Assembly: GCA_965221025.1 (NCBI GenBank)
Contig: CBDCRJ010000001.1
Span: forward strand, 197,850-261,849
Length of the DNA: 64,000 nucleotides
Reading direction: 5' to 3'
DNA from: Dehalococcoidia bacterium
Lineage (GTDB): Bacteria > Chloroflexota > Dehalococcoidia > Lucifugimonadales > UBA3495
A program made the translations under genes and the position numbers. Position 1 is the first letter of the stretch, and each line of letters opens with the position of its first letter. Shown in pieces: positions 9,609 through 27,567 of the stretch. The notes beneath the pieces are model-generated. The model ran no database searches and had not been told where the DNA came from. It saw only the letters and a program-made list of their open reading frames with translations.

Positions 9609-9629
9609 GAGTCGAGGACCGGCGGCGGT

Positions 9630-10748: not shown

Positions 10749-10772
10749 TTCTATACCCATTAGACCTTCGCG

Positions 10773-11606: not shown

Positions 11607-11796
11607 GTCTCTCCTCCAATAGTGCTGCTTCATTCTAGCATTTGGAAGGAAGCGTTGGCTGGTTCGACCTCAGAGACGGGACCCGGGCCCATGCTATAAT
11701 CCGTTGGAATTCCAACCGACCGTTATTCACGGATCGACTTGTGCTTAAATCCGCCCGCATCCTTCTTGTGGCACCCGTTATGTCAAGGAGAGAGTC

Positions 11797-12573
11797 ATGG
11801 AGCTAGATGGTTCGGTGATCGTAGTTACCGGTTCGGCCACCGGGCTGGGAGCGGCCGTGGCCCGGCGGGCCTCCGCTAAAGGGGCGCGGGTGGTCGTCAA
11901 CTATACGAAAAGCGAGACCGAAGCCAGGGAGACGGTCCAAGCCTGCGAGGACTTAGGGGGCGAGGCCCTGCTTTGCCAGGGCGACGTCGCCGTCGACGAG
12001 GACTGTCGCCGGATCGCGGCCATGGCCGTGGACCGCTGGGGCCGCGTCGATGGGTTGGTCAACAATGCCGGGCAGTCGGTCTTCGCCAGCGCCGCCGACT
12101 TGGAGTCCCTCTCCGGCGATGATTTCCTCCGGATATACTCAGTCAACGTGGTGGGGGCCTATCAGATGGTCCGTGCAGTCGCCCCTCATTTGAAAGCCGG
12201 GGGCGACGGCGCCATCGTTAACGTTTCCTCGATTTCGGCCATTACGGGGGGTGGCAGTTCCATCGCCTACGCCTGCTCCAAGGCTGCCCTTAACGCCTTG
12301 ACGCTCGCACTAGCCCGGAGCCTGGCGCCACAGGTACGGGTCAACGCCATTTGTCCCGGCCCGATCCCAACCCGCTGGTGGGGCGACGGGCTTGGGGAAG
12401 AGGGCGCACGGACGCTTTTCCAAAAATTTGCAGAACAGGTCCCGCTTCAGGGCGCTCCCACCGCCGATAGCGTCGCTGGCACGGTGGTCTGGTTGCTGGA
12501 GGCGGCCGGCCACGTTACCGGCGAAACGATCATGGTCGACTCGGGCATGCATCTATTGGGTTTCAAACCGTAG
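11797..12573 (+). CDS. SDR-family oxidoreductase
   Basis: VTGSATGLG (TGxxxGxG), NNAG and YACSKAALN (YxxxK) motifs. Confidence 0.9.
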   Translation: MELDGSVIVVTGSATGLGAAVARRASAKGARVVVNYTKSETEARETVQACEDLGGEALLCQGDVAVDEDCRRIAAMAVDRWGRVDGLVNNAGQSVFASAADLESLSGDDFLRIYSVNVVGAYQMVRAVAPHLKAGGDGAIVNVSSISAITGGGSSIAYACSKAALNALTLALARSLAPQVRVNAICPGPIPTRWWGDGLGEEGARTLFQKFAEQVPLQGAPTADSVAGTVVWLLEAAGHVTGETIMVDSGMHLLGFKP

Positions 12574-12588
12574 GAGGATAGAGCGTTA

Positions 12589-13503
12589 GTGAGTATCGAG
12601 ACCTCTTCCAACGGCGGAGACAACGAGGACCATTTGGAGATTGCCAGGGGCAACACCGGCCCCCGGCTCGTGGACCACTTGCTCTACGAACCCGAGGATT
12701 CGGGTATCCTCTGGATCAAGTTCAACCGCCCGGAACGGATGAACGCCCTCATTGGCAATTCACAGGAGAACGGCACTGTGGCCAAGGTAGGTGAGTACAT
12801 GCGGGCCGGCGACGACGATCCCAACGTCCGGGTGATAGTCCTTACCGGCGTTGGCCGCGGCTTTTGCTCCGGGGCCGACATGCGCCGGGATACCGACCCT
12901 TCGGTAACCGGCGAAAACTTCATCGGTAACCGGGGTACCGAAGAGGGCCCAGACGCCGCCCGCCAGCACTTCTTCCACGGCTTCACCCATCTGCATCGGG
13001 ACATCTCCCTGATACGAAAACCCACCGTCGCCATGATCAACGGGCCGGCCGTCGGGTCGGGAATGGACATGGCGCTTCACTGCGACATTCGCGTCGGCTG
13101 CGAAAACACCCGGTTCATCGGATATCAGCAATTGGGCCAGATCATTGAAAACGGCGGCAGCTACTATTTGCCGAAGTTGGCCGGGCTAGGCAGGGCCTTG
13201 GAGTTTGCTTACACCGGGCACTTGGACGCGAAGCGGGCCCACGAGTGGGGACTCTTGAACTATCTCGTGGCCGCCGAGGAATTGGAGCAGACGACCCGCA
13301 GTCTTTGCGAGCGCATCATGCGCACCCCGCCGATGGTGCAGTGGATCAGCAAGCGGATCATGCGCAGCGTCATGGACACCAGCCTGGAAAACACGATGGT
13401 GTTGACCTCCAACGCCGGCGGGATCCTAAACGGCTCCGACGACGCCGAAGAAGCCCGCCGCGCGTTCCTGGAAAAAAGGGCGCCGTCATTCAAAGGGCGC
13501 TAG
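12589..13503 (+). CDS. Enoyl-CoA hydratase/isomerase (crotonase) family protein
   Basis: VIVLTGVGRGFCSGADM oxyanion-hole motif and PTVAMINGPAVGSGMDMAL. GTG start 10 nt after TAGGAGGA. Confidence 0.9.
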   Translation: MSIETSSNGGDNEDHLEIARGNTGPRLVDHLLYEPEDSGILWIKFNRPERMNALIGNSQENGTVAKVGEYMRAGDDDPNVRVIVLTGVGRGFCSGADMRRDTDPSVTGENFIGNRGTEEGPDAARQHFFHGFTHLHRDISLIRKPTVAMINGPAVGSGMDMALHCDIRVGCENTRFIGYQQLGQIIENGGSYYLPKLAGLGRALEFAYTGHLDAKRAHEWGLLNYLVAAEELEQTTRSLCERIMRTPPMVQWISKRIMRSVMDTSLENTMVLTSNAGGILNGSDDAEEARRAFLEKRAPSFKGR

Positions 13504-13608
13504 GGCCGGGCAACGGGCGCTAAAGGCAGGCAAGCTCGCTAGAGTTACCGGTAAACGTCGATATCCCGCCGGGCGACGGCTGGGTGCCGACGTAACGCCG
13601 TCAGGTCG

Positions 13609-14616
13609 TTAGTAACGGGCCACTGCAAGAGCCCCCACTGCTACCGAAGGCAGACTTACGGGCAGTTGGTCCCAAGACTCGCCACGGTCCTCGCTACAGA
13701 ACAGTTTGCCGCCGTCGGTGCCAGCATAGACCCGGTCCGGCGATTGAGGGTCCCACTCGAAGGCCACCGCCATGTCCGAGGCATTCTCACCGTGACCCAA
13801 CGCCTCTACCAATTGCCAATTCCGTCCGCCGTTGGTGGAACGGTAGAACTGAGGGTCTTTCCGCCCGGCGTTGGCGGACACCGTGACCAACACCAAGTCC
13901 GCGTCGTCGGGAGCGGCCGCCAAGTGCAGAGTATAGCGCCGTTCCAGGCCGCTGTTTATTGACTCCCAGTGGTCTCCCCCGTCGTCGCTACGGAAGGGCG
14001 AGCTTGCCGTGGCAACGTACACCCGGTTGGGGCGGTCGGCGCTCAGGTTCACGCAATGGATGTCGTCGTCGAGACCCGGTAGTTGCTGCCAAGTAGCCCC
14101 AGCGTCCCGGGAGCGGACCATACCCCCCACTTCGATACCGGCGTAGAGGTGATTTGGGTCGTGGGGTGACGCCCGCAGGTCGCGGACATGGGAGTCGCGA
14201 GTCTCCGAGTGGAAAAACCACTGACTCGCTTCGGGGACGGCCCGGAAACCGTCGCGCTCCCGCCAACTGATTCCGCCGTCGTCAGACTGGAAGACAGCGG
14301 CCGGCTCGCTTCCCGCATAGACCGTTTCCGGTTTCGAGGGATGGGCCAGCACACTGTGGGCGTAGTCGCTGGGGTACGAATCCAGACGCCTCCAGACCAA
14401 TCCGGCATCGTCCGTGCGGTAGACACCGGCCTCATAGGCCGCCAGATAGGCGCGTTCCGGGCTAACCGGGCTTGCCGTCAGCCTCGCCGCGGCATGGGGC
14501 AGGCGGGTGATGGGCCCCTGTTGCCAAGTCTTACCGTCGTCCTCACTGCTAACGGTACACACCCCATCGTGCATACCCACATGGATTCGGCGGTGGTTCT
14601 TGTGGTGTTGCGACAT
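13609..14616 (-). CDS. BNR/Asp-box repeat beta-propeller protein
   Basis: Seven SxDxGxxW boxes (SEDDGKTW, TDDAGLVW, SDDGGISW, SRDAGATW, SDDGGDHW, STNGGRNW, SEDRGESW). ATG 14616 chosen (M30 of ORF 13609..14703). Confidence 0.75.
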   Translation of the reverse strand: MSQHHKNHRRIHVGMHDGVCTVSSEDDGKTWQQGPITRLPHAAARLTASPVSPERAYLAAYEAGVYRTDDAGLVWRRLDSYPSDYAHSVLAHPSKPETVYAGSEPAAVFQSDDGGISWRERDGFRAVPEASQWFFHSETRDSHVRDLRASPHDPNHLYAGIEVGGMVRSRDAGATWQQLPGLDDDIHCVNLSADRPNRVYVATASSPFRSDDGGDHWESINSGLERRYTLHLAAAPDDADLVLVTVSANAGRKDPQFYRSTNGGRNWQLVEALGHGENASDMAVAFEWDPQSPDRVYAGTDGGKLFCSEDRGESWDQLPVSLPSVAVGALAVARY

Positions 14617-14825
14617 GATGTCCCTGCCTTCGTTATGTCGAGTTCGCGTAGTCTCATAACGATTATATTCCAAACCGCGCTGTTCGGTCAGGGCGCAGCC
14701 CACAGGTCGTGTACCATTGATAGCTCAGGAGGAATCGAGGGGCCTCCCAATGGCCGCCCGTTAGAAACAAAAGGAAGTTCGCTCCTTTACGGAGTTCCGA
14801 CGGCGGGACTATCATTACCTGGCAA

Positions 14826-14902
14826 GGGTGGTTAGCTCAGTTGGTTAGAGCGCCTGCTTTACACGCAGGAGGCCGCAGGTTCGAGTCCTGCACCGCCCAC
14901 CA
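14826..14902 (+). tRNA. tRNA-Val (anticodon TAC)
   Basis: Hand-folded cloverleaf: acceptor gggtggt/accgccc (one GU), D-arm gctc-agttggtta-gagc, anticodon arm cctgc-ttTACac-gcagg, T-arm gcagg-ttcgagt-cctgc, discriminator A, encoded CCA. Confidence 0.9.
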
Positions 14903-14953
14903 GACTTGACGAAATCAAGAACCTTCAGCTTGAGGTTTACGCTGGACCTGTAG
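14895..14953 (+). repeat. DR1: tRNA-Val 3' end plus flank, repeated at 23485 and 30379 (degenerate copy near 37725)
   Basis: gcccaccagacttgaYRaaatcaagaacYttca... About 37/42 nt are identical to the copies at 23485 and 30379. Homology continues with one gap for roughly 60 nt. Confidence 0.65.
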
Positions 14954-15095
14954 TTAGGTGTAGGTGACGTGCTCGCCCGAGGAAGTGCGAGTGAACTCGA
15001 TAAGCCGGCCTTTCAGTTGTTGTTCGCCTTGCCTAGAGTTTCGGCCGACAGGGCCGATGGGCTGACCAATTTGAGGGATAGGGCCAATTCCTGAC

Positions 15096-17180
15096 CTACC
15101 GCAGGGCCTTGTTGATTGTCTTGATGAATTCCTTCCACTGAGTTCGTTCTACCTCGGTGAGGTCTGCTGCTTCATGTTCTCGTGTCCAGCGAAGGAAGGC
15201 CTTGGCGAGCCGGTACTTCGAGAAGGTCTCTTTGCCGATCTCCTTTGTGAAGATGTCAACAACTGGCCGTGCTGGTTGCCGACCGGCAGTCTCTTCGATG
15301 TCCCAACCCAGATCGGTCTTCGCTACATCTATGAGTGTGTCCCTGAGTAGGTCTTCGATCTCCGGGCCTTTAACGACTCCCGTGCAGGCGTCAGCCGTTC
15401 GGAGGATGTTCTTGTTGCCTAGGGTGTGGATTAGGGTTTCGACTCTGGCAGCAGCTTCACCAGCCGCGTCCGAGTCCAGCAAGGCCGCCACCTTGAGGTT
15501 GTTCGCGTGAAGAATAGTGGCGAAGTAGACCACCTTGCCGGCGTTGTTAGCTGGGATTAGCGCAATCTTGTCGTTGAGATCTGCCTCTCCCGCCGCCTTG
15601 AGAAGGGCCGCGGTCGCCTCAATGTACCAATAGTCGGTCAGACCCTCGAGAACCAGATTGCGCTCCTGCATGAAGAGGCTCTGGGCAAGGTCATAGCCGA
15701 GTGCCTCCTGGAGGGGAAGAAGCGCGGTTGAGTCACCGGCAGTGATCGTGGTGTGGACCTTAGTGCCGGTCGTTCGCTCCTTCATCTCGACGACCCGCAC
15801 CAAGTCGAGCTCGTCTGGCCCCACCATGAACGGCGAGTGGGTCGTGTACAGGAGCTGGTTGGTCTCGCCTAGGCGAGAAACGGTGGTACGGAACTCGCGC
15901 TGCTTTAACCCATGGAGACTCAGCCCAGGTTCGTCAAGCAGCAAGACGGCATTCTGATGGCTGTCAGCTGCTTCGGCAAAGAAAACGACAAAGAACGAAA
16001 CAAGCCACTGGAAGCCTTCAGAGCGCTGGTCCAGCTCGACTTCCACACCTAGCTCGTCCTCGACGACGACCTTGAGATACTGCTGGTCGGCTTCGACACG
16101 CAGACGATCAGCCTCGGCCTTTTTCGGGTCGGGCTGCCAAACCCTGTTGATGCTCTTGGTTAGCTGAATGCTCGCGGCGTTGAGTCTGTAGCTGCGTCTG
16201 TCGAGTTGGTCTTGGTAAGCTTTAAGGCCACTCTGGTCGCCCGCCCCAGGCTCGGCGGCTTTGCCTAGGTTGGAGAGCTCGCGCGCTTCAAAGCCAAGGA
16301 GTTTGAGCAGACACTGGTTTCCCCTGTCATATTGGTCGTCGTCTAGGACGTTCTGTTCTAGGCGGTCAGCGAGAAGGCCCAAGTGGAGTCTAGGGCGAAC
16401 TCTGAAGTAATTCGAGAAATACACAAAGACCGGCAGACGTCCACGGAGCAGCTTCAGGGCCTTTTCTGTTTTTTCGGACATCCTAGCCGCATTGGTCAAC
16501 CTATCGAGGCGTTCTTCCTCAAGCTCATTCTCCTCGTCAACTAGAGGAGTGACGCCATTCAGCCACTCCATGAGTGTAGTGGCTCGTTCTCCCGAGAGGC
16601 TGGATTCGTCGCCCCATTCAGCAACCATCGCATCCAGCTCTTGACGGTGGGATGTCTCAGAAGCCTCCTCCGCACCCGCAGTGACCTGTGCATCAAGGTG
16701 TGAAGCCAGCCGTAAGAGGTCCTTACGGATATCACCATATCTTGGGACCACTGGGCCGCCATCGATTCTATGCCAGAACTTATTGTCAAGGCGACGCCCG
16801 AACACATAAGTGCAGCCAGTAAAGCGCTCGTCTATCTGCGTGACCGCCTCTAGTTCATCGTCGTCAAGTCCGAAGTGCGCCTCCACTACAGTCACTTTGT
16901 CGGGTGTGATAGTTCCGCCGCCCGTCTTATCGAGTCTAAGATCACTAAGCTCAGACCGTGGAAAGTCGCGGAGTGGGTCAAAGTTTGGCACGCCGTTTGG
17001 TGGGTTAATTTGCTCAAGCGCTCTGAGCAGCACCGTCTTGCCAGCCTCGTTGGGGCCGACGATGATCGTCTTCATAGATTCGACATCGAACCATCCGCTG
17101 TCTCGGATACCCCGATATTTCTGTACACGGGCTTTCTGTAATTTCATTAGGCCACCATCCAAACTAAGAGGATAATCCAT
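15096..17180 (-). CDS. OLD-family nuclease (ABC-type ATPase + C-terminal Toprim)
   Basis: Walker A GPNEAGKT, Walker B LLLDEPGLSLH, TTHSPF, then Toprim LVLEGLTDYWYIE and ALLDSDAAGE. The start could instead be ATG 17147 (MKLQKARVQKYRGI). Confidence 0.85.
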   Translation of the reverse strand: MDYPLSLDGGLMKLQKARVQKYRGIRDSGWFDVESMKTIIVGPNEAGKTVLLRALEQINPPNGVPNFDPLRDFPRSELSDLRLDKTGGGTITPDKVTVVEAHFGLDDDELEAVTQIDERFTGCTYVFGRRLDNKFWHRIDGGPVVPRYGDIRKDLLRLASHLDAQVTAGAEEASETSHRQELDAMVAEWGDESSLSGERATTLMEWLNGVTPLVDEENELEEERLDRLTNAARMSEKTEKALKLLRGRLPVFVYFSNYFRVRPRLHLGLLADRLEQNVLDDDQYDRGNQCLLKLLGFEARELSNLGKAAEPGAGDQSGLKAYQDQLDRRSYRLNAASIQLTKSINRVWQPDPKKAEADRLRVEADQQYLKVVVEDELGVEVELDQRSEGFQWLVSFFVVFFAEAADSHQNAVLLLDEPGLSLHGLKQREFRTTVSRLGETNQLLYTTHSPFMVGPDELDLVRVVEMKERTTGTKVHTTITAGDSTALLPLQEALGYDLAQSLFMQERNLVLEGLTDYWYIEATAALLKAAGEADLNDKIALIPANNAGKVVYFATILHANNLKVAALLDSDAAGEAAARVETLIHTLGNKNILRTADACTGVVKGPEIEDLLRDTLIDVAKTDLGWDIEETAGRQPARPVVDIFTKEIGKETFSKYRLAKAFLRWTREHEAADLTEVERTQWKEFIKTINKALR

Positions 17181-17418
17181 CTCTTGGGGAGCAGGTCATA
17201 ACCGTTGGGGCTTCCGGTCAGGTACCGTTAGCTTGCCTCTCATCGCTCCCTAAATCTCCTCCTGGTAAATCCAATCGGCCAGGGGAGGAACCGCAAGTCA
17301 AGCAGGTCGAAGGATGCACAATGCAACTCCTTGCAGAGAATCAGATGAAGACCCCGTCGCAAGCACCCGAGAGTTCCCAGCTTCAGACCGGATCATTGCT
17401 TAGCATATTGCGCAGTCG

Positions 17419-18183
17419 TCAGTCGTAGCCTACGTCGGACGGAAGGAGTGGGCGCACCTGCTTTTCCCGAACCTCGCTTAGGGCGTAGTCCTTTAATAGA
17501 CCTACATCTGGGACATTGACAAACCCTGAAAATCTCTCACTGTTCTCATCGCCGATACGAATCAGGTCAGAGGAGGTGAGGGTTGAAATGCCTCCGGCCA
17601 CGGCTGAGCGCGACATGGCCGTTAGGCGGACGATGTCTCGCTGCCGAAGGGTGATCTCGCGTTCGCAACCGTGATCCTCTCCTCTCAGGGCGAGGCGGGA
17701 AATCAGGGCGGCCGCAACCCTCTGCGCCGGACTCCCGCTGATAGCGAGGGTGATCCAGTAGTAGCGCGCCAAACGCCTCAGCAAGACAAGATACATCTCG
17801 GAACGTATCTGAGGGATCCTTTCAACTGCGAGCCTCATGGTGGCGACTGGGATGGCTACTACGGTCGCCGGCGTGGCGGCCGAATAGGAGGCCACCCAGC
17901 GCTTCGCACCCATCATGAATTCGTGGTCGCCGATGAGGAAGGGGGAGGACAGGTCCGAATATGGATACTGCCAGGTCACGATCATTCCGTGTTGAACGAA
18001 GTACAGGTACGTGAAGGGCTCCCCCGACCGAATGAGCGCGATGTCAGCCGAGGGCTCGATGAACAGCATCTCCAATGGCTCCTGTCCACGAGAGAGAGCG
18101 TCCTCAAGCTCGACAGCATCGACAGACTGAAAGGCCTGACACCGCGCCAGTGCCTGGGCGAAACCGCCGATTTCAATTGCCAT
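17419..18183 (-). CDS. CRP/FNR-family regulator (cNMP-binding domain + C-terminal HTH)
   Basis: Beta-roll-like region FTYLYFVQHGMIV...FLIGDHEFMMGAKRWVASYSAATPATVVAIP, then HTH ITLRQRDIVRLTAMSRSAVAGGISTLTSSDLI. ATG 18183 chosen (M61 of ORF 17419..18363). Transcribed divergently from cap4. Confidence 0.75.
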   Translation of the reverse strand: MAIEIGGFAQALARCQAFQSVDAVELEDALSRGQEPLEMLFIEPSADIALIRSGEPFTYLYFVQHGMIVTWQYPYSDLSSPFLIGDHEFMMGAKRWVASYSAATPATVVAIPVATMRLAVERIPQIRSEMYLVLLRRLARYYWITLAISGSPAQRVAAALISRLALRGEDHGCEREITLRQRDIVRLTAMSRSAVAGGISTLTSSDLIRIGDENSERFSGFVNVPDVGLLKDYALSEVREKQVRPLLPSDVGYD

Positions 18184-18256
18184 TGCGGCTAACTCCCATT
18201 CATGCTGCCGCCATCTTAGCATACCAACGGGCATTTGTGAAGATGTTGACACGGCA

Positions 18257-18285
18257 TTGACTTTGTCTGCCAGAAGACATATGCT
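18257..18285 (+). promoter_or_regulatory. Candidate sigma70-type promoter for cap4 with an embedded inverted repeat
   Basis: TTGACT (18257-18262), 17-nt spacer, TATGCT (18280-18285). The spacer contains TGTCT-N6-AGACA (18264-18279). ATG of cap4 is at 18329. Confidence 0.4.
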
Positions 18286-18328
18286 AGTCCCGTAGCGACA
18301 TGCACAAGATGGACGAAGGCGATAGACA

Positions 18329-19855
18329 ATGAGAGCGGTTTCTGCTCGGCAACAGGGGGACACATACCAGGGACGCGTGTTCTGGCTAGAGGCTTGCCGC
18401 CTGTTCCAACGTCACACGAAAGTTGCAGGCGTTGGGTGCGAGATCGATGATGTCCCCCATTTCGACGATGTCGCTGTCGTCTACTCTGAGCCAATCAGGG
18501 ACGCCCACGGCGAGTTGGTCTCCGCCGACTACTATCAAATCAAATGGCACGTTGACCATGGCGGGGCGCTCACTTGCGACGCCCTGACGGACCCGTCCTT
18601 TATCGGCTCCAAGAGCACCTCACTCCTCCAGCGGCTGCATGAGGCCGTCAAGACGACATCGGCGAGAAACGAGACTGCAAGGTTCAACTTCATGACCACC
18701 TGGAGCATCCCCGCCGATGACGTCCTGGCGAAGCTAGTGAGTGGACGCGATGGGGAGTTGAGGCTCGATGTCCTCTTTGGTCAGGACACATCCGCTCGGT
18801 TCTCTCGGGTCATAGAGCGGTGGTCGCACGACCTGGGGGTGGGCCACGAGGAATTGCGAAGCGTGTTGGCCCGCCTGCGAATCTGTGCCAACTCTTACAG
18901 CCTCGATCATCTGACCAGGACACTGAGTGAGCATTTGGCGAGGGCCGGCTTCCGCGCAGTTGACCATGGCAGCCGAGCGAATCCATACGACAGCCTGATC
19001 GAACGTCTGCTCTCCGAGGGGCGGAGCAAGTTCACGGCACTGGAGATCCAGACCATCTGCAGCGAGGAAGGACTATGGACGGGCCCGGAATCGGACTGCG
19101 AGGCTCCCCTCGTCGGCATCAGGAGTTTCCTCCGGTTTGCTGAGCACATGGAAGACGAAGTTGACCACCTGTTGGACCTAGCAGGTCTGTTCGATGGTAG
19201 GGAGATTGGTGCACCAGAATACTGGAACACCAAAGTCGGCCCCAAGATACATGAGTTCATGACGAGGTCGGTCGCCCCCCTCGGTCAGTGCAATCTGTAC
19301 CTCTCCGCGCACAGCTCCATCGCTTTTGCGGCCGGGTACGAACTGGACCCTAAGTCCGGCACACGCGTCTCACTCGTCCAGAACACCGCCGCCGGTAGAT
19401 CGATTTGGGACTCCTCCTCCGTGACGGCGAGTCCCGACTCCAATCCCTGGAGGGTCTCAGGTATCAGTACGCACCCGAACGGTCGTGAAGTCGGCATCGT
19501 CCTGTCGGTAACCCATGACGCAAGCTCTGAGGTTCTGGCGCATGTTCAGGAGCACATCCCACAACTGGGCCACCTGCTTACCTTCACCATTTCGCCCGAT
19601 ATAGGCCCGATGGCAGTAAGGGACGGGGACCACGCGTGGATACTGGCACAGGAGTTGGTGAAGACCGTTCGGGAGCGGCATCCGAGGCACACCCCTACGG
19701 GTCCTTTGCACATATTCAGCGCTGCCCCAAATGGACTGGTTTTCCTCGTGGGGAGGCTTGCCCGTAGCCTCGGGCCCATACAGTTGTACGAGCACGACTT
19801 TGAGTCCAACTGGCCCTCTAGGTATCGGAAATCGCTCTCACTACCTATCGGATAG
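18329..19855 (+). CDS. cap4: CBASS effector Cap4-like: N-terminal PD-(D/E)xK endonuclease (DUF4297-like) fused to SAVED
   Basis: N-terminus GDTYQGRVFWLEA...CEIDDVPHFDDVAVVY...DYYQIKWH (D...QxK nuclease signature). The C-terminus LHIFSAAPNGLVFLVGRLARSLGPIQLYEH is typical of the SAVED end. Confidence 0.8.
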   Translation: MRAVSARQQGDTYQGRVFWLEACRLFQRHTKVAGVGCEIDDVPHFDDVAVVYSEPIRDAHGELVSADYYQIKWHVDHGGALTCDALTDPSFIGSKSTSLLQRLHEAVKTTSARNETARFNFMTTWSIPADDVLAKLVSGRDGELRLDVLFGQDTSARFSRVIERWSHDLGVGHEELRSVLARLRICANSYSLDHLTRTLSEHLARAGFRAVDHGSRANPYDSLIERLLSEGRSKFTALEIQTICSEEGLWTGPESDCEAPLVGIRSFLRFAEHMEDEVDHLLDLAGLFDGREIGAPEYWNTKVGPKIHEFMTRSVAPLGQCNLYLSAHSSIAFAAGYELDPKSGTRVSLVQNTAAGRSIWDSSSVTASPDSNPWRVSGISTHPNGREVGIVLSVTHDASSEVLAHVQEHIPQLGHLLTFTISPDIGPMAVRDGDHAWILAQELVKTVRERHPRHTPTGPLHIFSAAPNGLVFLVGRLARSLGPIQLYEHDFESNWPSRYRKSLSLPIG

Positions 19856-19884
19856 GGAGCAAAACCCAACAAAGGAGCAGAAGG

Positions 19885-21006
19885 ATGGAATTGAACAGCT
19901 ACTTCACGGACTTTCTCAGCAAGATCAGGCCGACGGAGGCCCAGACCAAGGAATTGCAGGAGGCTCACACGCGCCTGCGAGAAAGACTGCTGGCCGACGA
20001 ATACCTCGGCCCCATGATCGTCAGCGTGTTCTTGCAGGGGAGCTATCGGAGGTCGACGTCCATTCGCCCTCAGGGGGACGACAAGCTGGACGTGGACTTG
20101 GTCGCCGTTACACGATTCCGCCGCCAAGACTACCCGGTGGCAGACGACGTGATGAAAGAGTTCGCTTCCTTCCTGAACAAGCACTACAAGGGCAAGTGGA
20201 AGAGGAAGGGACGGTCCATCGGCATAGAGATGTCCAAGGTGAAGCTCGATCTGGTGATCGCGGCGGCACCCTCGGAAGAAGAACCTTGGTCCTCCGATTT
20301 CATCCAGGGGCACTTCACGCCTGACGACTGGCCAATGGACTCTGATGCCTTGCCCAAGTATCTTGCTGATTTCTTCAAAGACCACCGCACGGGAGAACCA
20401 CAGTGGAAGCAGGAGCCTCTCTACATCCCTGACAGGGACACCCATGAATGGCAGCGCACCCATCCCCTGGAACAGTACGGGTGGACCACCAACAAGAACA
20501 GGCGCACGAACGGTCATTTCGTCAACATTGTGAGGTTGGTCAAGTGGTGGTGGAGAACGGCGCATCCCGAACTCGAATATCCGAAGAGCTATCCTCTGGA
20601 GCATTTGGTCGGCGACTGCTGCCCAGACAATGTTGAGAACCTGGCGCAGGGATTCACCCTTGTACTTGAGAAGATGGTCTCCACGTACTCGGCATACGCG
20701 GCTGCAGGGATGGTTCCGTTCGTTCCAGACCGAGGAGTTCCCGAGCACAACGTACTCAAGCGACTGTCTTCAAGTGACTTCTCAAAATTCGTTGACCGTG
20801 TCCAGAACGCCTCTGGTGTGGCGCGGAAGGCCTTGGAGTCGGGCGATTCGTCGGAGAGCGCGAACCTGTGGCAATCGCTTTTGGGTAAGAGGTTCCCGTC
20901 CCCTTCAGGTGGATCATCGGCAGCGGCGGCCGGAGCTGCAGCGGGGACTGCCGGGTTCACACCTCGCCGAGAGCCGACGCGCGTTGGAGGGGGAAGATTC
21001 GCCTAG
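19885..21006 (+). CDS. cdn: CD-NTase (SMODS-family cGAS/DncV-like nucleotidyltransferase)
   Basis: FLQGSYRRSTSIRP (GS motif), DVDLVAV (DxD) and KLDLVIAA (third Asp). Ala/Gly-rich tail ending GGGRFA. AAGGAG lies upstream of the ATG. Confidence 0.85.
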   Translation: MELNSYFTDFLSKIRPTEAQTKELQEAHTRLRERLLADEYLGPMIVSVFLQGSYRRSTSIRPQGDDKLDVDLVAVTRFRRQDYPVADDVMKEFASFLNKHYKGKWKRKGRSIGIEMSKVKLDLVIAAAPSEEEPWSSDFIQGHFTPDDWPMDSDALPKYLADFFKDHRTGEPQWKQEPLYIPDRDTHEWQRTHPLEQYGWTTNKNRRTNGHFVNIVRLVKWWWRTAHPELEYPKSYPLEHLVGDCCPDNVENLAQGFTLVLEKMVSTYSAYAAAGMVPFVPDRGVPEHNVLKRLSSSDFSKFVDRVQNASGVARKALESGDSSESANLWQSLLGKRFPSPSGGSSAAAAGAAAGTAGFTPRREPTRVGGGRFA

Positions 21007-21044
21007 CTTCTTGCCACGACCGATCGCTTACTGAGTCCCTCCGC

Positions 21045-22823
21045 GTGGGTCGCAGAGCCTTGGAGTCGGTGCCGGGCATAAAGATGCTGGGGGACTTCGC
21101 CTGGCACGAAGACCGAGCGCTCTGGGCTCTTCACTGCAGGATCGCCGCGGACGTTGAGTCGGGAGGTCTTATACCTCGTACAACCGACTGGTACATCCAT
21201 GTCCGCGATACATACCCGTTCGGTCAAGTCATCTTCTACCCGGCGAAGGTCGGGGGTGTAACGCACACGTTCTATCACCAGAATCACAATGGAGCCGGGC
21301 CCAACGAATTGCCGTGGAGATGTGGACGTCTGTGTGTCGACACAAGCCTTCGCACTCTGGGTCGGCGGTCCTACGATGTCGAGCCGTTCGATCCGGAATC
21401 CAGGCTCGCCTGGCATGTCCGCCGAGTACAGGAGTGGCTTGGCCTAGCGTCACGAGGCGAGCTGGTCCATCTTGGCAACCCCTTCGAGTTGCCACATATT
21501 CCCTTTTCCTCCGGTCCCAAGGTTATCTTCGCCGAGGGACCCGAGAATCTTTCCTTCTGGTTGGGGCGGCACCCGCGTAAGGGCACTGCGAGTGTCCGAA
21601 TCCTAGAGGAAGACCCACCAATTCTCGTGGTGGACGACCTGAACGTGGGCAAGTCTGGAGTAGATATCCAGGCCCCCTGGACCAAACCTCTCGGTAAGGA
21701 AAGCGATCTTGGCGTGGCGTGGATCTGGCTCGACCAGCTACCAGTAGTCGCTCCATGGGCGATACCAACAACATGGGGACAGCTCCGAATGTGCTGCAGG
21801 GCACAGGGGGTTGATCTTGACTCCTTGTTGAGGCCGTTATGCGGCAACCTCAGGGACGGGAAGAGGCATGTTCTGCTTGTTGGATTTCCCGTCCCGGCCA
21901 GAGTTCAGGAACCTGATGCCCAGGTTCACTGGCTCGCGCTCTGGCTCCCGCCCCTGACCTCACGGCCGTTACCTGGATTTCGCCCCACGGAGTCAGGCTA
22001 CTGGAGCCGAGACCGATCGCTGGCATTCGGAGACAGTGTGCCTCTGGAATGGCTTGAGACCGAGAATTGGCACCAGGATGAGATATCAGGCCGGGGGAGG
22101 GTGAATCCATCGGTACGGTCAAAGTCTATTGTGATCATCGGTGGTGGCGCGGTTGGCTCGGTGCTGGCCGAAATCTTAGTCCGCTCAGGCGTCCAGGATG
22201 TGACGATCATGGACCACGACCGCCTGAAAGTTGGCAACCTCGTCAGGCACACTCTTGGAGTTAGCCACCTGGATAAGCCGAAAGCTCGGAATTTGGCAGA
22301 CCGCCTCGATGATGCAGCGGTCCATTCCGTCGTAACTCCCATAGATGCTGCATTTCCCCCGACTGACCGCAAGGACATCAATCGTGTTCTGAACGCCGAT
22401 GTCGTCATCGACTGTACGGCAGACGACTCCGTTGCGGAGCATATGCGTAGGTTCGCTTGGGACGGACCCGTTACCTTCGTGTCGGTATCAGTTGGCTTGA
22501 AGGCGAGGCGAGCGTTCACCTACGTGGCGCACAGCAACACCTTCCCGGCCGACGACTTCGCAAATAGGCTGGATCCCTGGCTCCGATCTGAAATGGATGG
22601 ATACGATGAGGAGTTGCCGCGGGATGGCACAGGGTGTTGGCATGCGCTGATGCCGGCGCGGATCGATGACATCTGGATAATGACCGGGGCGGCTGTAAAG
22701 ACCATAGGATCCGCAATCGCCGAGCCTCCGAGTGAACCCACTCTGGTCGTATTTGAGCAGCAGTACGAGAATGGTGAATTCGTTGGGCTACGTAGAGTGT
22801 CCGCACCCGACGCCATCTCCTAA
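21045..22823 (+). CDS. cap2: Cap2 (E2-like + E1/ThiF-like fusion)
   Basis: E2-like HQNHNGAGPNELPWRCGRLCVDT (HxN...C), then E1 Rossmann IVIIGGGAVGSVLAEILVRSGVQDVTIMDHDRLKVGNLVRH. GTG 21045 or ATG 21084 as start. Confidence 0.85.
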   Translation: MGRRALESVPGIKMLGDFAWHEDRALWALHCRIAADVESGGLIPRTTDWYIHVRDTYPFGQVIFYPAKVGGVTHTFYHQNHNGAGPNELPWRCGRLCVDTSLRTLGRRSYDVEPFDPESRLAWHVRRVQEWLGLASRGELVHLGNPFELPHIPFSSGPKVIFAEGPENLSFWLGRHPRKGTASVRILEEDPPILVVDDLNVGKSGVDIQAPWTKPLGKESDLGVAWIWLDQLPVVAPWAIPTTWGQLRMCCRAQGVDLDSLLRPLCGNLRDGKRHVLLVGFPVPARVQEPDAQVHWLALWLPPLTSRPLPGFRPTESGYWSRDRSLAFGDSVPLEWLETENWHQDEISGRGRVNPSVRSKSIVIIGGGAVGSVLAEILVRSGVQDVTIMDHDRLKVGNLVRHTLGVSHLDKPKARNLADRLDDAAVHSVVTPIDAAFPPTDRKDINRVLNADVVIDCTADDSVAEHMRRFAWDGPVTFVSVSVGLKARRAFTYVAHSNTFPADDFANRLDPWLRSEMDGYDEELPRDGTGCWHALMPARIDDIWIMTGAAVKTIGSAIAEPPSEPTLVVFEQQYENGEFVGLRRVSAPDAIS

Positions 22824-22830
22824 CCTCACC

Positions 22831-23283
22831 ATGTGCTCCCCCGATGGGCGTTTTCGCGTCCAAGTTGGGTATCACCAGTTGGAGGCTCTATTGGATGTGT
22901 GCCGCGAGTCCGGCGACTTGGAGACCGGCGGGGTCCTCGTTGGTCGGTACAACGAGGCGCACGACACCGCGATAGTGACACGGGTATGGGGTCCGCCAGG
23001 AGACTCCGTCAGGAGGCGGACCAGCTTTTGGAGAGGAACCCAAGGCCTGCAACAGCAACTTGACGCCTTGTGGAAGTCCAGGGAATACTACCTTGGTGAA
23101 TGGCATTATCATCCCCGAGGAGCCGGTCAACCCAGCAATGGGGACAAACAGCAGATGGTCCGGATTGCCGAATCGCTTGATTACAACACTCCGGAGCCCG
23201 TGCTCATAGTGGTCGGTGGATCGGACTGGGAAGTGCTGGGCCACGTGTTCCCGCGGCACGGCACAGCCATTGGGCTTGTCTAA
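22831..23283 (+). CDS. cap3: Cap3 (JAB/JAMM isopeptidase)
   Basis: ETGGVLVG plus HYHPRGAGQPSNGD, an exact E...HxHx7Sx2D JAMM motif. ATG 22831 lies 8 nt after the cap2 stop. Confidence 0.85.
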   Translation: MCSPDGRFRVQVGYHQLEALLDVCRESGDLETGGVLVGRYNEAHDTAIVTRVWGPPGDSVRRRTSFWRGTQGLQQQLDALWKSREYYLGEWHYHPRGAGQPSNGDKQQMVRIAESLDYNTPEPVLIVVGGSDWEVLGHVFPRHGTAIGLV

Positions 23284-23621
23284 ACTTAAGCGAAGAATCC
23301 TCGGCAGGCCCTCACCCACCTCGCGTCGGCTACTGCGTGCTCAGCAACGAGCAACCATGAGGCCTTAGTGGGTTCAGAGGCTGCCGAACGACACCTGGAG
23401 GATGGTACCGTGTCTAGCGTCCTCAACCGACCTACAAAGCCCCAAGCCACAATTCGAAGACGGTTCTGTCTATCGTCAAAATAGGCCCACCAGACTTGAT
23501 AAAATCAAGAACTTTCACCCTGCGGGTCAGGTTGGCGCTGTAACCGACGCCTGCCTTGCCCCGGCGTCGGCCCGCCGGGAAACGGCAAATCAGGCCGACA
23601 GGTAACGTACCAAGCAGCGAC

Positions 23622-23658
23622 GAGGCCCCTGCTGTAACGGCGGGGGCCTCTGGTTTGT
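23622..23658 (+). terminator. Intrinsic-terminator-like hairpin (module A)
   Basis: gaggcccctgctg / cggcgggggcctc stem (about 13 bp with wobbles), followed by tggtttgt. Conserved in all three full modules. Confidence 0.5.
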
Positions 23659-23839
23659 CTCAGACCGCCGCTGCCATTTCGACGCTCGCGGCTACGTCCC
23701 GCGGGCTCCCCGCCATTCCCCGGCCGTCAGTCGATGGGAGTCCCGTTGAGCGCCCACGCCGCTTCCTGAACATGCTGGGCTAAGACCTGACGCGACATGG
23801 GCATAGGCGCCTGGTAGTCATTTGCCTATGCAATCACTG

Positions 23840-23874
23840 TAGACAAATGTCTAGTGCAAAATAGACATTTGCAC
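23840..23874. promoter_or_regulatory. Paired palindromes TAGACAAATGTCTA and GTGCAAA-ATAGACA-TTTGCAC (operator candidates)
   Basis: TAGACA-AA-TGTCTA at 23840-23853. A 7-bp inverted repeat around ATAGACA lies at 23854-23874. The same arrangement occurs in modules C and E, and a variant at 35571. Confidence 0.55.
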
Positions 23875-24157
23875 CTTACGTCCGGCTTGGAAGCTCACTA
23901 CGATTTACGTTGGCGAGGGCTGCTTTTCGAGCGGCCAGCCTTGTCATGGGCGCCGAAAACCCAGGCAATCATCCGACGTTGGGCGAGAGGAGCGATGACC
24001 AGTACCGATAGACGAGGAATCCCAATCCTCGACGGAGCAGAGACATCCGTCGCAGCAGCCCGCGTTGCCGTGGTCTCCGCGACCCGGTCCGCCCCCCATT
24101 CGATGAAAGGTCAACCGAAGAGGAGTTAGCAAGGTTCCACTTAGGGAAGTTAAGGAC

Positions 24158-27100
24158 GTGAAAGCAATGTCGAAGTCAATCATTGGTCTGGTGCTGAGCA
24201 TCGCGGTTCTCGCCATCCTGCTAATCGGGTGTTCCGATGAGCCAGAGCCCATTCCTTCAAACGGGGCCGATTCCAGCACCACCGCCCCATCGGAGCAGGG
24301 GGTCAATCCTGAGCCAACACATGCTCCCACATCGGCTGTGACAAACACCGACGCATCAGAAGCTGCAATTCCCACACCTGCCGCTCTCCCGACCGCCACT
24401 GCAACGCCCGCAGCCACGGCGACTCCGTTACCCACTGCCATGCCAAGGCCGCAGCCGACTCCCAAGCCCACGACGACACCGGCACCAACATCCGCCGCAT
24501 CAGAAGCTGCAATTCCCACACCTGCCGCTCTCCCGACCGCCACTGCAACGCCCGCAGCCACGGCGACTCCGTTACCCACTGCCATGCCAAGGCCGCAGCC
24601 GACTCCCAAGCCCACGACGACACCGGCACCAACATCCGCACCGACACCTACTCCTACACCAACGCCGACACTAACGCCAACGCCGGAACCCACTCCTGCG
24701 CCGACGCTCACACCAACGCCGACACTAACGCCAACGCCGGAACCCACTCCTGCGCCGACGCCCCTCCCAAGGGCCACGACGATTACGCTGACACCCGGAA
24801 TGGCGATGCTGGAGGCCCCGGACGAGACGGCTCACCTGGCGGTGGTGGTCCGCGACCAGAACGGCCGGGTCATGACCGGAGTACCGGTGACGTGGGCCAG
24901 CAGCGACGAGCGGACTGCTCAGGTGGATGCAGAGGGCCGGGTCATGGCCGTTGCCGGGGGGTCAGCGACGATCACCGCAAGGGCAGGCGAGGCGTCGGGG
25001 ACCTCCCAGGTCATGGTCGTTGACATGGATTGGGCCGCCGGTTTCGTAGCCCGCCAGCATGTGGTTGACGCTGTTACGGGCTTCTCCGGACGTGTTGACC
25101 CGGACTGCACGGCGGTGGACTGTGAACGTGCCCGGTTCCCGGGCGATGGTTCAGGCAACTTCGGGACCTTCAAGGCAGTCACCGGCATCGATCTGGCAGT
25201 GGACAGCACAGGCAGGAGTGGCCTGTCCGGGATGATCCGAAGGCGGGATGCGTTCGACTCCGGAAGGTATGCCAACGGCAAGGTGGTCCGAACCTACGCG
25301 GACATAGAGGCCGCGCACGCCGACGGCAAATTGGCCGTCATGTTCTATGTGCAGCGTCGGCCCGAGTCCTCCGACTGGCAACTGGACGGAGACGTCGCGA
25401 ACCTGCGGCGCTGGTACGACGAAGGCTTGAGAATTCTGCAGGTGTCATACGGCGATGGCCCCGAAAGGCCGGACGCGACCTCTCTCGACGAACGGCTTGG
25501 TTACGGAACTTACGGGCCCCATGAGGGGGAGGAAAAAGGAGTTACCGCTCTCGGCCGTGCCGCCATCGCCGAGATGAACGCCATGGGCATGATCGTCGAC
25601 TGCTCGCATTGCAGCAAGCAGACCACGCTGGATGCGGCAGCCCTGTCCACCAAGCCCGTTATTGCGACGCACGCCAACGCTGAGGCACTTACCCCGCGAA
25701 TACGGAACAAGGACGACGACGAGTTGCGTGCCATCGCCGGCACGGGAGGCGTAATCGGGGTTACGTGCATCCGGTGGATGCTCGACACGGACGGCGACGG
25801 GAAAGCGGGTATGTCCGACATGATCGCCCACATTGAGTACATAGCGGAACTCGTGGGCATAGACCACGTGGGAATCTCCTCCGACTCGGACGTGAATGGA
25901 TGGCCGCAGGAATCGGTGCACTATGCGGACGCCGACATTGCCGCTCCGGACCGCTGGGTGCGGCTCACCGCCCAACTCCGCGCTAGGGGTTGGAGCGAGG
26001 AGGACCTGGCAAAGCTGCTGGGCGGCAATTTCCTGAGGGTCTTCGCCGAGGTGCTCCCCACAAGAGGCGCGAAGGGCAGGGAACCGGAATCTATGCCCCC
26101 TAACTTCAAGGTAGCCTTCATTGGGGACCAGGGGCTAGGCCGTGGTTCTGGGGCGGTCTTGGAAATGATACGAGAGGAAGGGGCGGATATGGTGCTGCAC
26201 TCGGGCGATTTCGACTATGACGACGACCCCGACCGCTGGGACCAACAAATCAATGAAACCCTCGGTGATGACTTTCCTTACTTCGCTTCCATCGGCAATC
26301 ACGATGTTCCTGCCTGGGAAGGTTACCAGAGGAAGTTACAGGAGAGGTTGGCTCGAATCAGCGGGGCCCGTTGCACAGGCGATCTGGGAGTAAATTCCTT
26401 CTGCACATTTGAGGGGTTGTTCTTTGTGCTTTCCGGCGTAGGCACCATTGACTCGGGCCGCGTCTCCTTCATAAGTGAAGCCCTTGGGTCCGAGGAGGCA
26501 AAGGAGTCCCTCTGGCGAATCTGCTCATGGCACAAGAACCAGAGGCTGATGCAAGTCGGGGGAAAGAAAGATTCGGTCGGATGGGAGCCTTACGAAGAGT
26601 GCCGGAAGGGCGGGGCGATCATAGCTACGGGCCACGAGCATTCTTATTCACGCACACACCTAATGGATAGTTTTCGGACCCAGAGCATCGCTTCCAAGTC
26701 GGCCGTCTTGAACGTTGACAATGGAAAGAGCTTTGCCTTTGTCTCCGGTCTTGCGGGACGCAGCATCAGAGGTCAGGACGATCAGCTCGCCGCCAAACCC
26801 TGGTGGGCGGCGGTGCATACTTCGGCGCAGGGAGCAAATCATGGCGCGTTGTTTTGCGTCCTCAACCACGAAGGAGTTGAAAATCGAGGATATTGCTACT
26901 TCAAAGACTTGAATGAAGTCAATCCCGACGCGTTTGGGGTCATTGTGGGGCCGACTGCTGAAATTCCTGAGGCATCATCATTCGTGCCGACGGCGAGTCC
27001 GAAGCGGGAGGTGGAGTACGACTATATCATAGAGTTGCCGGACGACTGGATCCAGAAAGGCGAGGACAGGTACAGCAGCCCCTCGCCCCGAGTCTCGATA

Positions 27101-27466
27101 ATTATTACATCTCACAGGTTCGGAGGTGACATTGACCAGTACATCCAACAGGTGCAAGACAATCTGAAAGAGGACTGGGAGGACTGGTGGTTTACGACTT
27201 CACTATTCGAGACCACTTCCGTAGATAGGGAAATTACGGACGAACAGACGACAATCCGTATGCGGTACCGGGTGCAGGAGGCCGAATACTGTGTCCTTGA
27301 CGTTGTCGATGTCGTGCTGGTATCCCAAATCGTTCCGGGAGACCCGCAGGTATTTAGAATACGGGCGTGGATGTGCGAGCGAAACGTTGCCAGCCGTGGC
27401 CAGATGAGGGATGACGTACTGAACAGTTTTGAGGTGATAACTAGGCCCATAAACGGCGGAAGTTAA
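24158..27466 (+). CDS. Multidomain lipoprotein A: PT-rich linker, Big_2, M19 (renal-type) dipeptidase, metallophosphoesterase, C-terminal unknown domain
   Basis: Lipobox LLIGC. Big_2-like [46 protein letters not shown]. Dipeptidase [32 protein letters not shown]. Phosphoesterase [32 protein letters not shown] 24167 is the likelier start (AAGGA upstream). Confidence 0.85.
24353..24640 (+). repeat. Near-perfect 144-bp tandem duplication inside the PT linker
   Basis: Unit gcatcagaagctgcaattccc...aacatccgc at 24353 and 24497 (48 aa each). Only the last base differs by my reading. Confidence 0.9.
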
Positions 27467-27567
27467 TTTTTCCGTGCGGGCGGGTAGCCGCTGACATTGG
27501 GTGGACGCAAATTGGGCCACCCGCCGCCTTACGTAAGGCTGACTACCAGCAACGGCGGGTGAGACGG

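Follow-up and report, generated by a model that had tools for sequence, protein, structure and literature searches.

A defence unit behind tRNA-Val in a Dehalococcoidia bacterium as probable non-autonomous cargo of a serine-recombinase array

Overview

The DNA analysed here (the window) is a 64,000-nucleotide stretch from a Dehalococcoidia bacterium (GenBank assembly GCA_965221025.1, contig CBDCRJ010000001.1, positions 197,850 to 261,849 of the forward strand). Behind its tRNA-Val(tac) gene lies a unit, U1, that carries an OLD-family gene and a type II cyclic-oligonucleotide-based anti-phage signalling system (CBASS). U1 is probably non-autonomous cargo, the tRNA-proximal member of a four-unit array that was inserted at tRNA-Val(tac) by a large serine recombinase (LSR). 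This reading builds on features that can be seen directly, namely the limits of the units, an empty site, other occupants at this tRNA, the occurrence of U1 among different neighbours, the recombinase gene, and matching half-sites.

The insertion at tRNA-Val and its empty site

The tRNA-Val(tac) gene occupies 14826-14902 on the + strand (ARAGORN; Rfam tRNA, 74.8 bits). An earlier note on this DNA, made from the letters alone, had reported that the tRNA end and about 50 nt downstream recur at 23485, and that the DNA between the copies holds only OLD, a CRP-like gene, and CBASS. Both statements are borne out, with the proviso that the CRP-like call is sub-threshold. Positions 14895-14953 and 23485-23543 align without a gap at 46 of 59 positions. 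The first 15 nt (GCCCACCAGACTTGA) are identical and form the longest exact run, and 35 of the first 42 positions match, slightly fewer than the 37 or so first counted. The single gap proposed at the time is unnecessary, since an in-frame stop closes both copies 51 nt past the core. The best local alignment of 14895-14960 against the remaining window (both strands) scores 34, whereas 200 dinucleotide shuffles gave a mean of 13.4, a standard deviation of 1.24, and a maximum of 20. The repeat is thus far above chance expectation. A 28-nt pattern derived from it has three matches in the window versus none expected, including a third copy at 30379, and a junction profile located an inverted exact 20-nt copy at 48258-48277. 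Neither copy had been recognised before.

Closely related strains, apparently conspecific, were found via exact copies of flanking proteins in public assemblies. An SDR protein and a 284-aa amidohydrolase gave matches. Exact-protein look-ups of a BNR protein, a response regulator, and a dehalogenase-like protein returned no record, probably due to differing start codons in the collection. The conspecific contig L126 (4.45 Mb, 22x coverage) matches window 6708-14907 at 96.0% identity and 52759-64000 at 97.3%. It reads ...GCACCGCCCACCA followed directly by ACTTTCTTTTCTG, which is an unoccupied tRNA-Val site joined straight to window position 52767 and beyond. Positions 8248-8259 of L126 align to both 14896-14907 and 52759-52770, the two segments overlapping by 12 nt. 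Therefore, the window carries an insertion of 37,864 bp (14903-52766, with GCCCACCA at either end), and the repeated stretch of about 50 nt is not target DNA. The empty tRNA-Val site that the earlier note proposed to look for in a related genome was accordingly found, and insertion at the 3' end of tRNA-Val holds. A tyrosine-integrase footprint of the classic kind does not hold. ACTTTCTTTTCTG is the native flank, the repeated DNA beyond the tRNA belongs to the element, and the copy at 23485 marks a junction inside a 37.9-kb array whose distal junction lies at 52759-52766.

The same tRNA is occupied differently in other strains, whose flanks are 97-99% identical and whose left flanks are 98-99% identical to each other. 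A 3.4-kb SIR2-HerA unit, bounded by GCCCAC and GCCCACCA, sits at the equivalent tRNA-Val in L122 and L128. In L123, the same tRNA-Val is followed by a 544-aa serine recombinase, a Replic_Relax protein, and a TraG-like protein, and the recombinase gene abuts the tRNA in antisense orientation. The left 100 nt or so of the L122 unit and the L123 recombinase gene's 3' end are homologous. Within one population or species, this tRNA thus has four states of occupancy. The SIR2 and HerA matches of L122 (13309-16157) have E values of 2.4e-75 and 1.2e-129. From 6708 on, the window is conserved in the sister strains L122 and L126, and L122 has an IS21-like insertion at the equivalent of 6708.

The model first proposed for this locus was an 8.6-kb island that had arrived alone through a tyrosine integrase, since lost, with the two repeat copies as attL and attR. 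The direct repeats do contain the last 8 nt of the tRNA, an integrase gene is absent between them, and GC content is lower within. The GC content of 14903-23484 is 57.7%, versus 61.9% in the core of the left flank and 60.3% in that of the right flank, so the drop first reported exists. U1 lies 3-4 points under its flanks, U2 to U4 are not lower, and other 2-kb stretches of the window dip equally; the difference is real but modest, and GC is weak evidence for an island. The model is contradicted by L126, in which the native flank is different and the insertion extends to 52766. Furthermore, element and target share only 6-8 bp, no Phage_integrase-family match was found in the 39 large window open reading frames (ORFs) scanned, and the repeated arm is the inverted partner of an LSR gene 3' end and completes the LSR ORF. 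We consider this model highly improbable.

Unit boundaries and junctions

Copies of the core begin at 14895, 23485, 30379, 48280, and 52759. The hexamer GCCCAC is invariant and is usually followed by CA. These copies divide the insertion into U1 (14903-23484, 8.6 kb, or 8,590 bp with one core copy), U2 (23493-30378, + strand, 6.9 kb), U3 (30387-48277, + strand, 17.9 kb, the recombinase-bearing element), and U4 (48286-52758, + strand, 4.5 kb). Core copy 1, GCCCACCA at 14895-14902, is the last 8 nt of the tRNA and forms junction J1, which is of attL type. Core copy 5, GCCCACCA at 52759-52766 on the + strand, forms J6, the true distal junction, which is of attR type and is followed by the native flank ACTTTCTTTTCTG... 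from 52767.

U1, U2, and U3 each open with a 20-mer, H' (GACTTGAYRAAATCAAGAAC), and a further 31 nt, the tail. In U1, this left arm (14903-14953, + strand) consists of H' GACTTGACGAAATCAAGAAC (14903-14922) and a tail, and it reads DLTKSRTFSLRFTLDL up to a stop at 14951-14953. J2 (23485-23543, + strand), which includes the left arm of U2, comprises core copy 2 (23485-23492), H' (23493-23512), and a tail. J3 (30379-30437, + strand) has the same composition with core copy 3 and is identical to J2 at 58 of 59 positions. J5 (48258-48285, + strand) is different, as it consists of the inverted arm H (48258-48277, in the LSR reading frame), CA, and core copy 4 (GCCCAC, 48280-48285).

The right ends of the units are related to recombinase genes. 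The right arm of U1, Z2 (23430-23484, + strand), is a remnant of a recombinase gene 3' end and reads ...VLSIVKIGPPDLIKSRTFTLRVRLAL through core and tail to the stop. Its frame at J2 runs ...VLSIVKIGPP, across the core, and into DLIKSRTFTLRVRLAL and the stop. In L044, L085, L106, and L113, intact LSR genes end in the sequence family of about 50 nt to which Z2 belongs. The corresponding right arms are Z3 in U2 (about 30324-30378) and Z6 in U4 (about 52715-52758). Hence all units start with a P'-type arm (the H'-tail in U1 to U3), and the arm at their other end is P-type: U3 has the intact 3' end of the LSR there, and U1, U2, and U4 have a short LSR 3' remnant. Because of this order, the internal junctions are attP-like, the first is attL-like, and the last is attR-like.

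Second, weaker copies of the recombinase 3' remnant lie at 23374-23422 and 30258-30297, 57-78 nt upstream of the right arms of U1 and U2. They may be scars of older junctions. A reading of the 45 nt or so left of the J2 and J3 cores as a degenerate tRNA 3' half or another structured RNA was rejected: the spacing is unlike that of a T-arm and acceptor, Rfam finds only the tRNA, and the sequence is the recombinase 3' remnant.

The serine recombinase and its attachment site

The LSR gene lies at 46716-48404 on the + strand, and its integrated form encodes 562 aa from the ATG. The protein (46653/46716-48404) contains the domains Resolvase (E 2e-32), Recombinase (E 1.3e-24), and Zn_ribbon_recom (E 8.2e-15). 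The segment YARVSSDRQ, which we take to be the serine-recombinase catalytic motif, is present and conserved in this protein and in the L123 recombinase, to which it is 50% identical. The best NCBIfam match is CcrB of SCCmec (staphylococcal cassette chromosome mec), at 166 bits and E 1.2e-48 (cutoff 900); CcrC scores 105 bits (cutoff 900). Judged by these scores, the enzyme is not a Ccr member, and CcrB is its nearest named relative. The absence of an integrase noted earlier is therefore accurate for 14826-23547 only; the array contains an LSR with a matching half-site.

The half-site H (GTTCTTGATTTCGTCAAGTC) is the exact inverted copy of H' and is found in frame near the 3' end of the LSR gene, where GTT CTT GAT TTC GTC AAG TC encodes VLDFVKS. 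In the integrated state, the last 41 of the 562 residues are read from U4 DNA. An attP rebuilt from J5 and J1 has 50 bp, GTTCTTGATTTCGTCAAGTC-CA-GCCCAC-CA-GACTTGACGAAATCAAGAAC, with 20-bp inverted arms around a non-palindromic centre. A size of about 50 bp and a layout with inverted arms are typical of serine-integrase attP sites. The complete site of H, 10 nt, and H' occurs intact, head to head, in L074. Element and tRNA share only GCCCAC(CA), that is, 6-8 bp. When H and H' are joined, H' and the following 31 nt encode the last 16 residues of the LSR and its stop. The tail consensus of the joined form is DL[TI]KSRTFxLxFxLxx before the stop. The predicted joined (attP-form) LSR has 540 aa and ends in ...VLDFVKSSPPDL[TI]KSRTF.L.[FV].L.. 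and the stop codon. Recombinase domains, att layout, and precise insertion relative to the empty site are those of an LSR element.

U1 in other contexts and its genes

An identical CD-NTase is encoded on two other contigs. L002/L003 match 14895-23490 at 99.92%, and the match begins exactly at the core. To the left of U1, these contigs lack a tRNA and instead have another unit's right arm; that unit carries PD-Lambda-4-like and other defence candidates. L001 (a 2x contig) matches 16587-23518 at 95.5%, and the DNA to the right of its U1 belongs to a different unit, which has an H'-like tail of its own and encodes a large methyltransferase and a transposase. U1 is therefore found in two left contexts and two right contexts, and it is always cut at the core. 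The earlier note had named relatives that carry the same genes without the repeats as the outcome that would tell against it; L001 and L002 carry the genes with the repeats. Its alternative of a decayed island or one mobilised in trans is roughly right, although enzyme class, extent, and anatomy differ from what was pictured. With att sites on both sides (J1 and J2) and without recombinase or transfer genes inside, U1 has the make-up of a cis-mobilizable element (CIME). The neighbouring units are themselves rich in defence candidates (L003 9461-18170 and L001 7227-13396), among them PD-Lambda-4_A (E 4.9e-88), PD-T7-5-like and PDC-S50-like proteins, and a large N6 methyltransferase.

U1 consists of six genes, namely OLD, the CRP-like gene, Cap4, CD-NTase, Cap2, and Cap3. 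The putative OLD-family ATPase/TOPRIM nuclease (15096-17147, - strand, 683 aa; Pfam AAA_15/AAA_21) has a clear ATPase (AAA_15, E 3.8e-16). Its OLD-like_TOPRIM match (E 6.8e-4) is below cutoff, at 20.6 versus 23.2 bits, and the PADLOC Old match (E 7.6e-22) spans only residues 404-581. The gene is also called as 683 aa in L002/L003. No partner gene was found beside OLD, UvrD- or GajB-like partners not having been specifically screened. The next gene (17419-18183, - strand, 254 aa) is divergent from the CBASS operon and has a weak CRP/FNR-like architecture. Its Pfam matches to cNMP_binding (E 1.5e-3) and HTH_Crp_2 (E 0.013) are both under the gathering score, and it has weak PDB matches to cNMP-binding domains.

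The CBASS genes are contiguous on the + strand. They encode a Cap4-type effector with endonuclease and SAVED domains (18329-19855; PADLOC Effector E 1.7e-152, Pfam SAVED E 1.8e-27), the CD-NTase or CBASS cyclase (19885-21006; PADLOC Cyclase E 5.3e-134, Pfam SMODS), the E1/E2 fusion Cap2 (21045-22823; PADLOC E1-E2 E 1.7e-193, ThiF), and the JAB isopeptidase Cap3 (22732-23283; PADLOC JAB E 5.8e-43, Prok-JAB). Cap3 is called as 170 aa in L002, which places its start near 22771. With CD-NTase, effector, Cap2, and Cap3 together, this is a type II CBASS.

The H' arm across Dehalococcoidia

The H' 20-mer was scanned in species-representative genomes. It was found in more than 118 stretches, which is a lower bound, and the counts given here and below cover the 121 sites listed. 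All but three of the stretches belong to metagenome-assembled genomes of Dehalococcoidia, often with several per genome. A tRNA CCA end directly precedes H' at 14 of the 121 sites. The tRNAs concerned are Ile, Ala, Lys, Met, Leu, Val(cac), and two Arg, which are eight isoacceptors of at least six specificities. Another 30 sites lie antisense in LSR 3' ends. The stop is placed exactly at codon 17 of the tail at 78 sites, or 78 of the 91 outside LSR 3' ends. No recombinase is found within 200 nt at 86 of the 121 sites (more than 100 species), where arm and stop codon are kept. Genes of U1 are scarce near these sites; in the 118 GTDB loci listed, only an OLD homologue of 30% identity and a 77-aa CRP-like fragment were found.

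Full-length recombinase ORFs (583-627 codons) run through core, H', and tail at five loci (L012, L020, L025, L046, and L111). L074 and L096 have this layout as well, cut by the locus edge. The + strand reading of the H'-tail is preferred because the stop is conserved (78/121) and intact ORFs run through the tail. Period-3 variation was tried as a way to choose the coding strand and was of no use, as third codon positions coincide in both candidate frames.

Homologues of the U3 Replic_Relax protein, at 74-85% amino acid identity, occur in about 18 other listed H' loci, and U3 is therefore a member of a common element backbone. No IMG/VR viral contig with core and 20-mer was found, so there is no sign in IMG/VR that the elements are phages. 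Two full-length recombinase genes converge tail to tail on one site at 9 of the 121 sites (L016, L017, L026, L044, L072, L085, L106, L107, and L113), and each of the converging ORFs runs 77-125 codons into the antisense of its partner. In one recombinase subgroup, AGGGGTACC takes the place of the spacer CRGCCCACC (L008, L017, L029, and L052 versus L093). The tRNAs paired with these recombinases end in GGGGTACCA, an indication that the spacer of the recombinase site co-varies with the tRNA target.

A scattered 20-mer of this kind could be read as a dispersed repeat near tRNAs, similar to repetitive extragenic palindromes or miniature inverted-repeat transposable elements, or as a regulatory or terminator repeat, in either case with no role in recombination. 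The number of copies, several per genome, would fit, as would the short palindrome CTTGA-N5-TCAAG within the 20-mer. Yet the copies coincide exactly with the points where strain-specific DNA gives way to shared DNA; 30 of the 121 are in frame at LSR 3' ends, and 14 of the 121 abut tRNA CCA ends. An inverted pair around a 10-nt spacer moreover gives the 50-bp site typical of a serine-integrase attP, and Rfam finds nothing at the 20-mer. A dispersed repeat is hardly credible.

Proposed mechanism and its weak points

Under the favoured reading, U1 would owe its position to site-specific recombination. The LSR would integrate attP into GCCCAC at the tRNA end, and the element would supply the last bases of the tRNA and the CCA. 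The array would grow by accretion, with each attP that arrives recombining with a hybrid site already in place (attL or attR), as proposed for SCC and the ssrA islands. Units without an integrase would have arisen by deletion of the recombinase gene body, with the last 50-100 nt or so kept as an att arm. U1 could then be mobilised as a passenger of U3, or alone with a recombinase acting in cis or in trans.

This scheme predicts several DNA forms. Recombination of J1 with J5 would give a 33.4-kb circle and restore the LSR to 540 aa, ending in ...SSPPDLTKSRTFSLRFTLDL and the stop. Excision at J5 with J1, J2, or J3 would in each case convert the 562-aa integrated LSR to the 540-aa form, and the circles bearing it would read LSR-H-CAGCCCACCA-H' with the tail of J1, J2, or J3. 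A circle of U1 alone would have the junction Z2-GCCCACCA-H'(J1), reading ...GTCTATCGTCAAAATAGGCCCACCAGACTTGACGAAATC.... The predicted scars are tRNA-core-H'(J2), tRNA-core-H'(J3), tRNA-core-TTTTTGCG (U4 only), and the empty site.

Several points weigh against this reading. We infer recombination activity at the array from sequence. Canonical serine integrases such as phiC31 and Bxb1 recombine only attP with attB, or attL with attR when a directionality factor is present. Building an array via attP-like internal junctions needs relaxed site choice, which is a weak point; a case for laxer site choice has been made for Ccr recombinases. Only about 14 of 22 positions agree between Z2 and H, and the window LSR may be unable to recognise Z2. 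The integrated LSR, with its foreign C-terminus of 41 aa, might be inactive. To the right of J2 and J3, U2 and U3 have about 900 bp at 90% identity in common, so that part of the array could be a product of homologous recombination or duplication. Lastly, L001, L002, and L123 are long-read contigs of 2-3x coverage.

Some of these points lead to a different account, in which the insertion is recombinase-mediated, the internal junctions are inert, and units are swapped by homologous recombination or duplication. Exchange would take place across the conserved junction sequences of about 60-110 bp or across longer shared modules. The arms are conserved to a degree that would allow some homologous exchange, as the near identity of J2 and J3 (58/59), followed by the 900 bp at 90%, illustrates. 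The account also accords with the behaviour of canonical serine integrases, which do not pair an attP-like site with attL. Judged by that shared stretch, homology-driven events did occur in U2 and U3. J1 and J2, however, match at only 46 of 59 positions with a longest exact run of 15 nt, which makes them a poor RecA substrate, and in every comparison identity switches inside the 6-8-bp core or at its border, not at scattered points along the arms. The retention of arm and stop at the 86 of 121 sites without an adjacent LSR also suggests that the arms are maintained by use. We regard this account as unlikely.

Other mobile systems were considered and set aside. An integron attC-like reading does not fit, as no IntI was found, conservation extends to both sides of the crossover, and the sequence encodes recombinase termini. 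The units are multigenic and 4.5-17.9 kb long, unlike an integron cassette array. For a Tn7-like element, no TnsB-type genes are present, and again conservation flanks the crossover on both sides.

A broader idea is offered tentatively. Dehalococcoidia might possess an integron-like serine-recombinase cassette system, in which multigene cassettes (defence systems in this case), each with both arms of a 50-bp attP and without a recombinase, are stacked at many tRNAs, the last 16 recombinase residues are encoded beyond the crossover, and the context-dependent C-terminus of the recombinase acts as an integration-state sensor. We think it possible, though doubtful. If true, the LSR C-terminus, and possibly its activity or directionality, would be set by the neighbour unit, that is, by whether the gene is on a circle, in the array interior, or at the array end. 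The split C-terminus would then be a built-in integration-state sensor that replaces or complements a directionality factor.

Other units and features of the window

U2 encodes two large secreted-type proteins. The first is an M19 peptidase-metallophosphatase-Big_2 protein (24158-27466), which is secreted or lipoprotein-like, and the second is a Big_2/CarboxypepD_reg protein (27559-30069). The cargo of U3 comprises RCC1-repeat proteins, a two-component pair, a Replic_Relax+MarR protein (41473-43185), a Gp49/HigB-like toxin with an HI1420-type antitoxin (45891-46656) directly upstream of the recombinase gene, and the LSR itself. U4 carries a histidine kinase (48379-49788), a response regulator (49785-50462), and a 518-aa protein (50600-52156), all on the - strand.

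A paralogous module of about 0.3-0.9 kb recurs at 23555-24400, 27621-28014, 30450-31300, 35154-35394, and 37760-38650. It consists of an upstream region, a lipoprotein-like N-terminus, and a Pro/Thr-rich linker, and it precedes five large secreted-type genes: the M19 peptidase-metallophosphatase gene, the Big_2/CarboxypepD_reg gene, two RCC1-repeat genes, and one histidine-kinase-like gene. The module copy at 37718 is without core and 20-mer. A 64-nt repeat (CCATGTTCCACTTTCCCCA...) occurs in three copies (43917-43980, 45686-45749, and 45742-45805) between the Replic_Relax and toxin-antitoxin genes of U3. These repeats may be protein-binding or origin-like.

In the flanks, 69-nt tandem coding repeats (56216-56509) lie within a 319-aa ORF (55581-56540) in the conserved right flank. 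Positions 1-10674 of the window are strongly strand-biased, with a GC skew of about +0.2, and this region ends beside tRNA-Arg(gcg) (10675-10748). Its genes encode a UvrD-like helicase, an SNF2 helicase, a DUF7307 (Pam3 gp33-like) protein, and an HTH_3 regulator.

Significance

The analysis replaces a vague island without an integrase by exact unit boundaries, an empty site, three alternative occupants of a single tRNA among near-identical strains, and a candidate enzyme with a 50-bp site. The conserved 20-mer and its tail provide a marker for delimiting mobile cargo in Dehalococcoidia genomes. The compact, highly symmetric attP and the recombinases could be of interest for serine-integrase mining in genome engineering. 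From the split recombinase C-terminus follows a hypothesis on the regulation of such arrays that can be tested.

Comparison with known systems

The closest precedent is found in Dehalococcoides mccartyi, where tandem genomic islands downstream of ssrA (ssrA-GIs) are bounded by a 20-bp repeat of its 3' end (McMurdie et al. 2011, PMC3146451). In the gene of DsiB, an LSR of about 540 aa, the 3' end extends over the attachment site (attL), and the stop codon lies outside the island (PMC3146451). The six-gene integration module comprises dsiB, dsiA, recF-like, parB, mom, and an embedded tRNA-like gene (PMC3146451). Fifteen ssrA islands without the integration module were read as possible cis-mobilizable elements gained by accretion, and the authors suggested that the recombinase is perhaps complete only on the circle or beside an island that gives the 3' fragment (PMC3146451).

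The window array shares with the ssrA-GIs the bacterial class of the host, the recombinase class, the tandem order behind a stable-RNA gene, and a recombinase 3' end that overlaps the att site. It differs in its target, which is tRNA-Val here and tRNAs of at least six specificities elsewhere instead of ssrA, and in its core of 6-8 bp versus a 20-bp repeat. The window LSR is distal and co-oriented with the tRNA, whereas the L123 recombinase takes a proximal, antisense position like that of DsiB. The cargo is anti-phage defence in the window and reductive dehalogenases in the ssrA-GIs. DsiA, ParB, and Mom had no Pfam match among the U3 proteins scanned, a subset of the U3 ORFs. With a tRNA-Val target and the module genes unmatched in that subset, the array is not placed among the ssrA-GI/DsiB islands.

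SCCmec composites are a second parallel. One such 40-kb composite consists of a pseudo-SCC, an SCC with ccrC, and SCCmec (bioRxiv 10.1101/336396). Ccr-type LSRs, insertion at the 3' end of a conserved gene, short direct repeats, and tandem mosaics of units with and without recombinase genes are features in common with the window. In contrast, the target here is a tRNA and not rlmH/orfX, there is one recombinase gene and not a ccrA/ccrB pair, attP spans the recombinase stop codon, and the LSR scores 166 bits against the 900-bit CcrB cutoff.

CIMEs related to ICESt1 and ICESt3 of streptococci have functional att sites and no integration or transfer genes, and they belong with integrative and conjugative elements that use tyrosine recombinases. 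They are regarded as deletion derivatives of autonomous elements, mobilised when an autonomous element integrates adjacent to them, a route termed accretion-mobilization. The units described here differ in that the recombinase is of the serine type and each unit keeps a recombinase 3' remnant as an att arm. In myxophage Mx8, attP lies inside the integrase gene (intP/intX), and integration alters the C-terminus of the integrase, a tyrosine recombinase. The crossover inside the recombinase ORF and C-termini that differ between integrated and excised states are common to both systems; here, however, the swapped segment is a conserved 16-residue tail (78 of the 121 sites).

Islander-type islands in tRNA genes are inserted by tyrosine integrases (PMC4383910). 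They resemble the array in insertion at a tRNA 3' end, an intact tRNA, and strain-variable cargo that includes defence genes. They differ from it in that the array has no tyrosine integrase among the 39 large ORFs scanned and no displaced tRNA fragment of 15-50 nt, and the repeat beyond 8 nt is element DNA. With only 8 nt of the tRNA repeated, the insertion does not belong to the tyrosine-integrase islands.

Overall, the array works like the ssrA-GIs and SCC but is a specific member of neither. The general principle has been known since 2011 for the ssrA islands of Dehalococcoides. That mechanism has a much wider counterpart across uncultured Dehalococcoidia, at tRNAs of at least six specificities and with cargo such as OLD, type II CBASS, SIR2-HerA, and PD-Lambda-4. 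What deserves attention is its breadth in Dehalococcoidia, the high regularity of the 50-bp site, the conservation of the split C-terminal tail, and the presence of defence genes as cargo.

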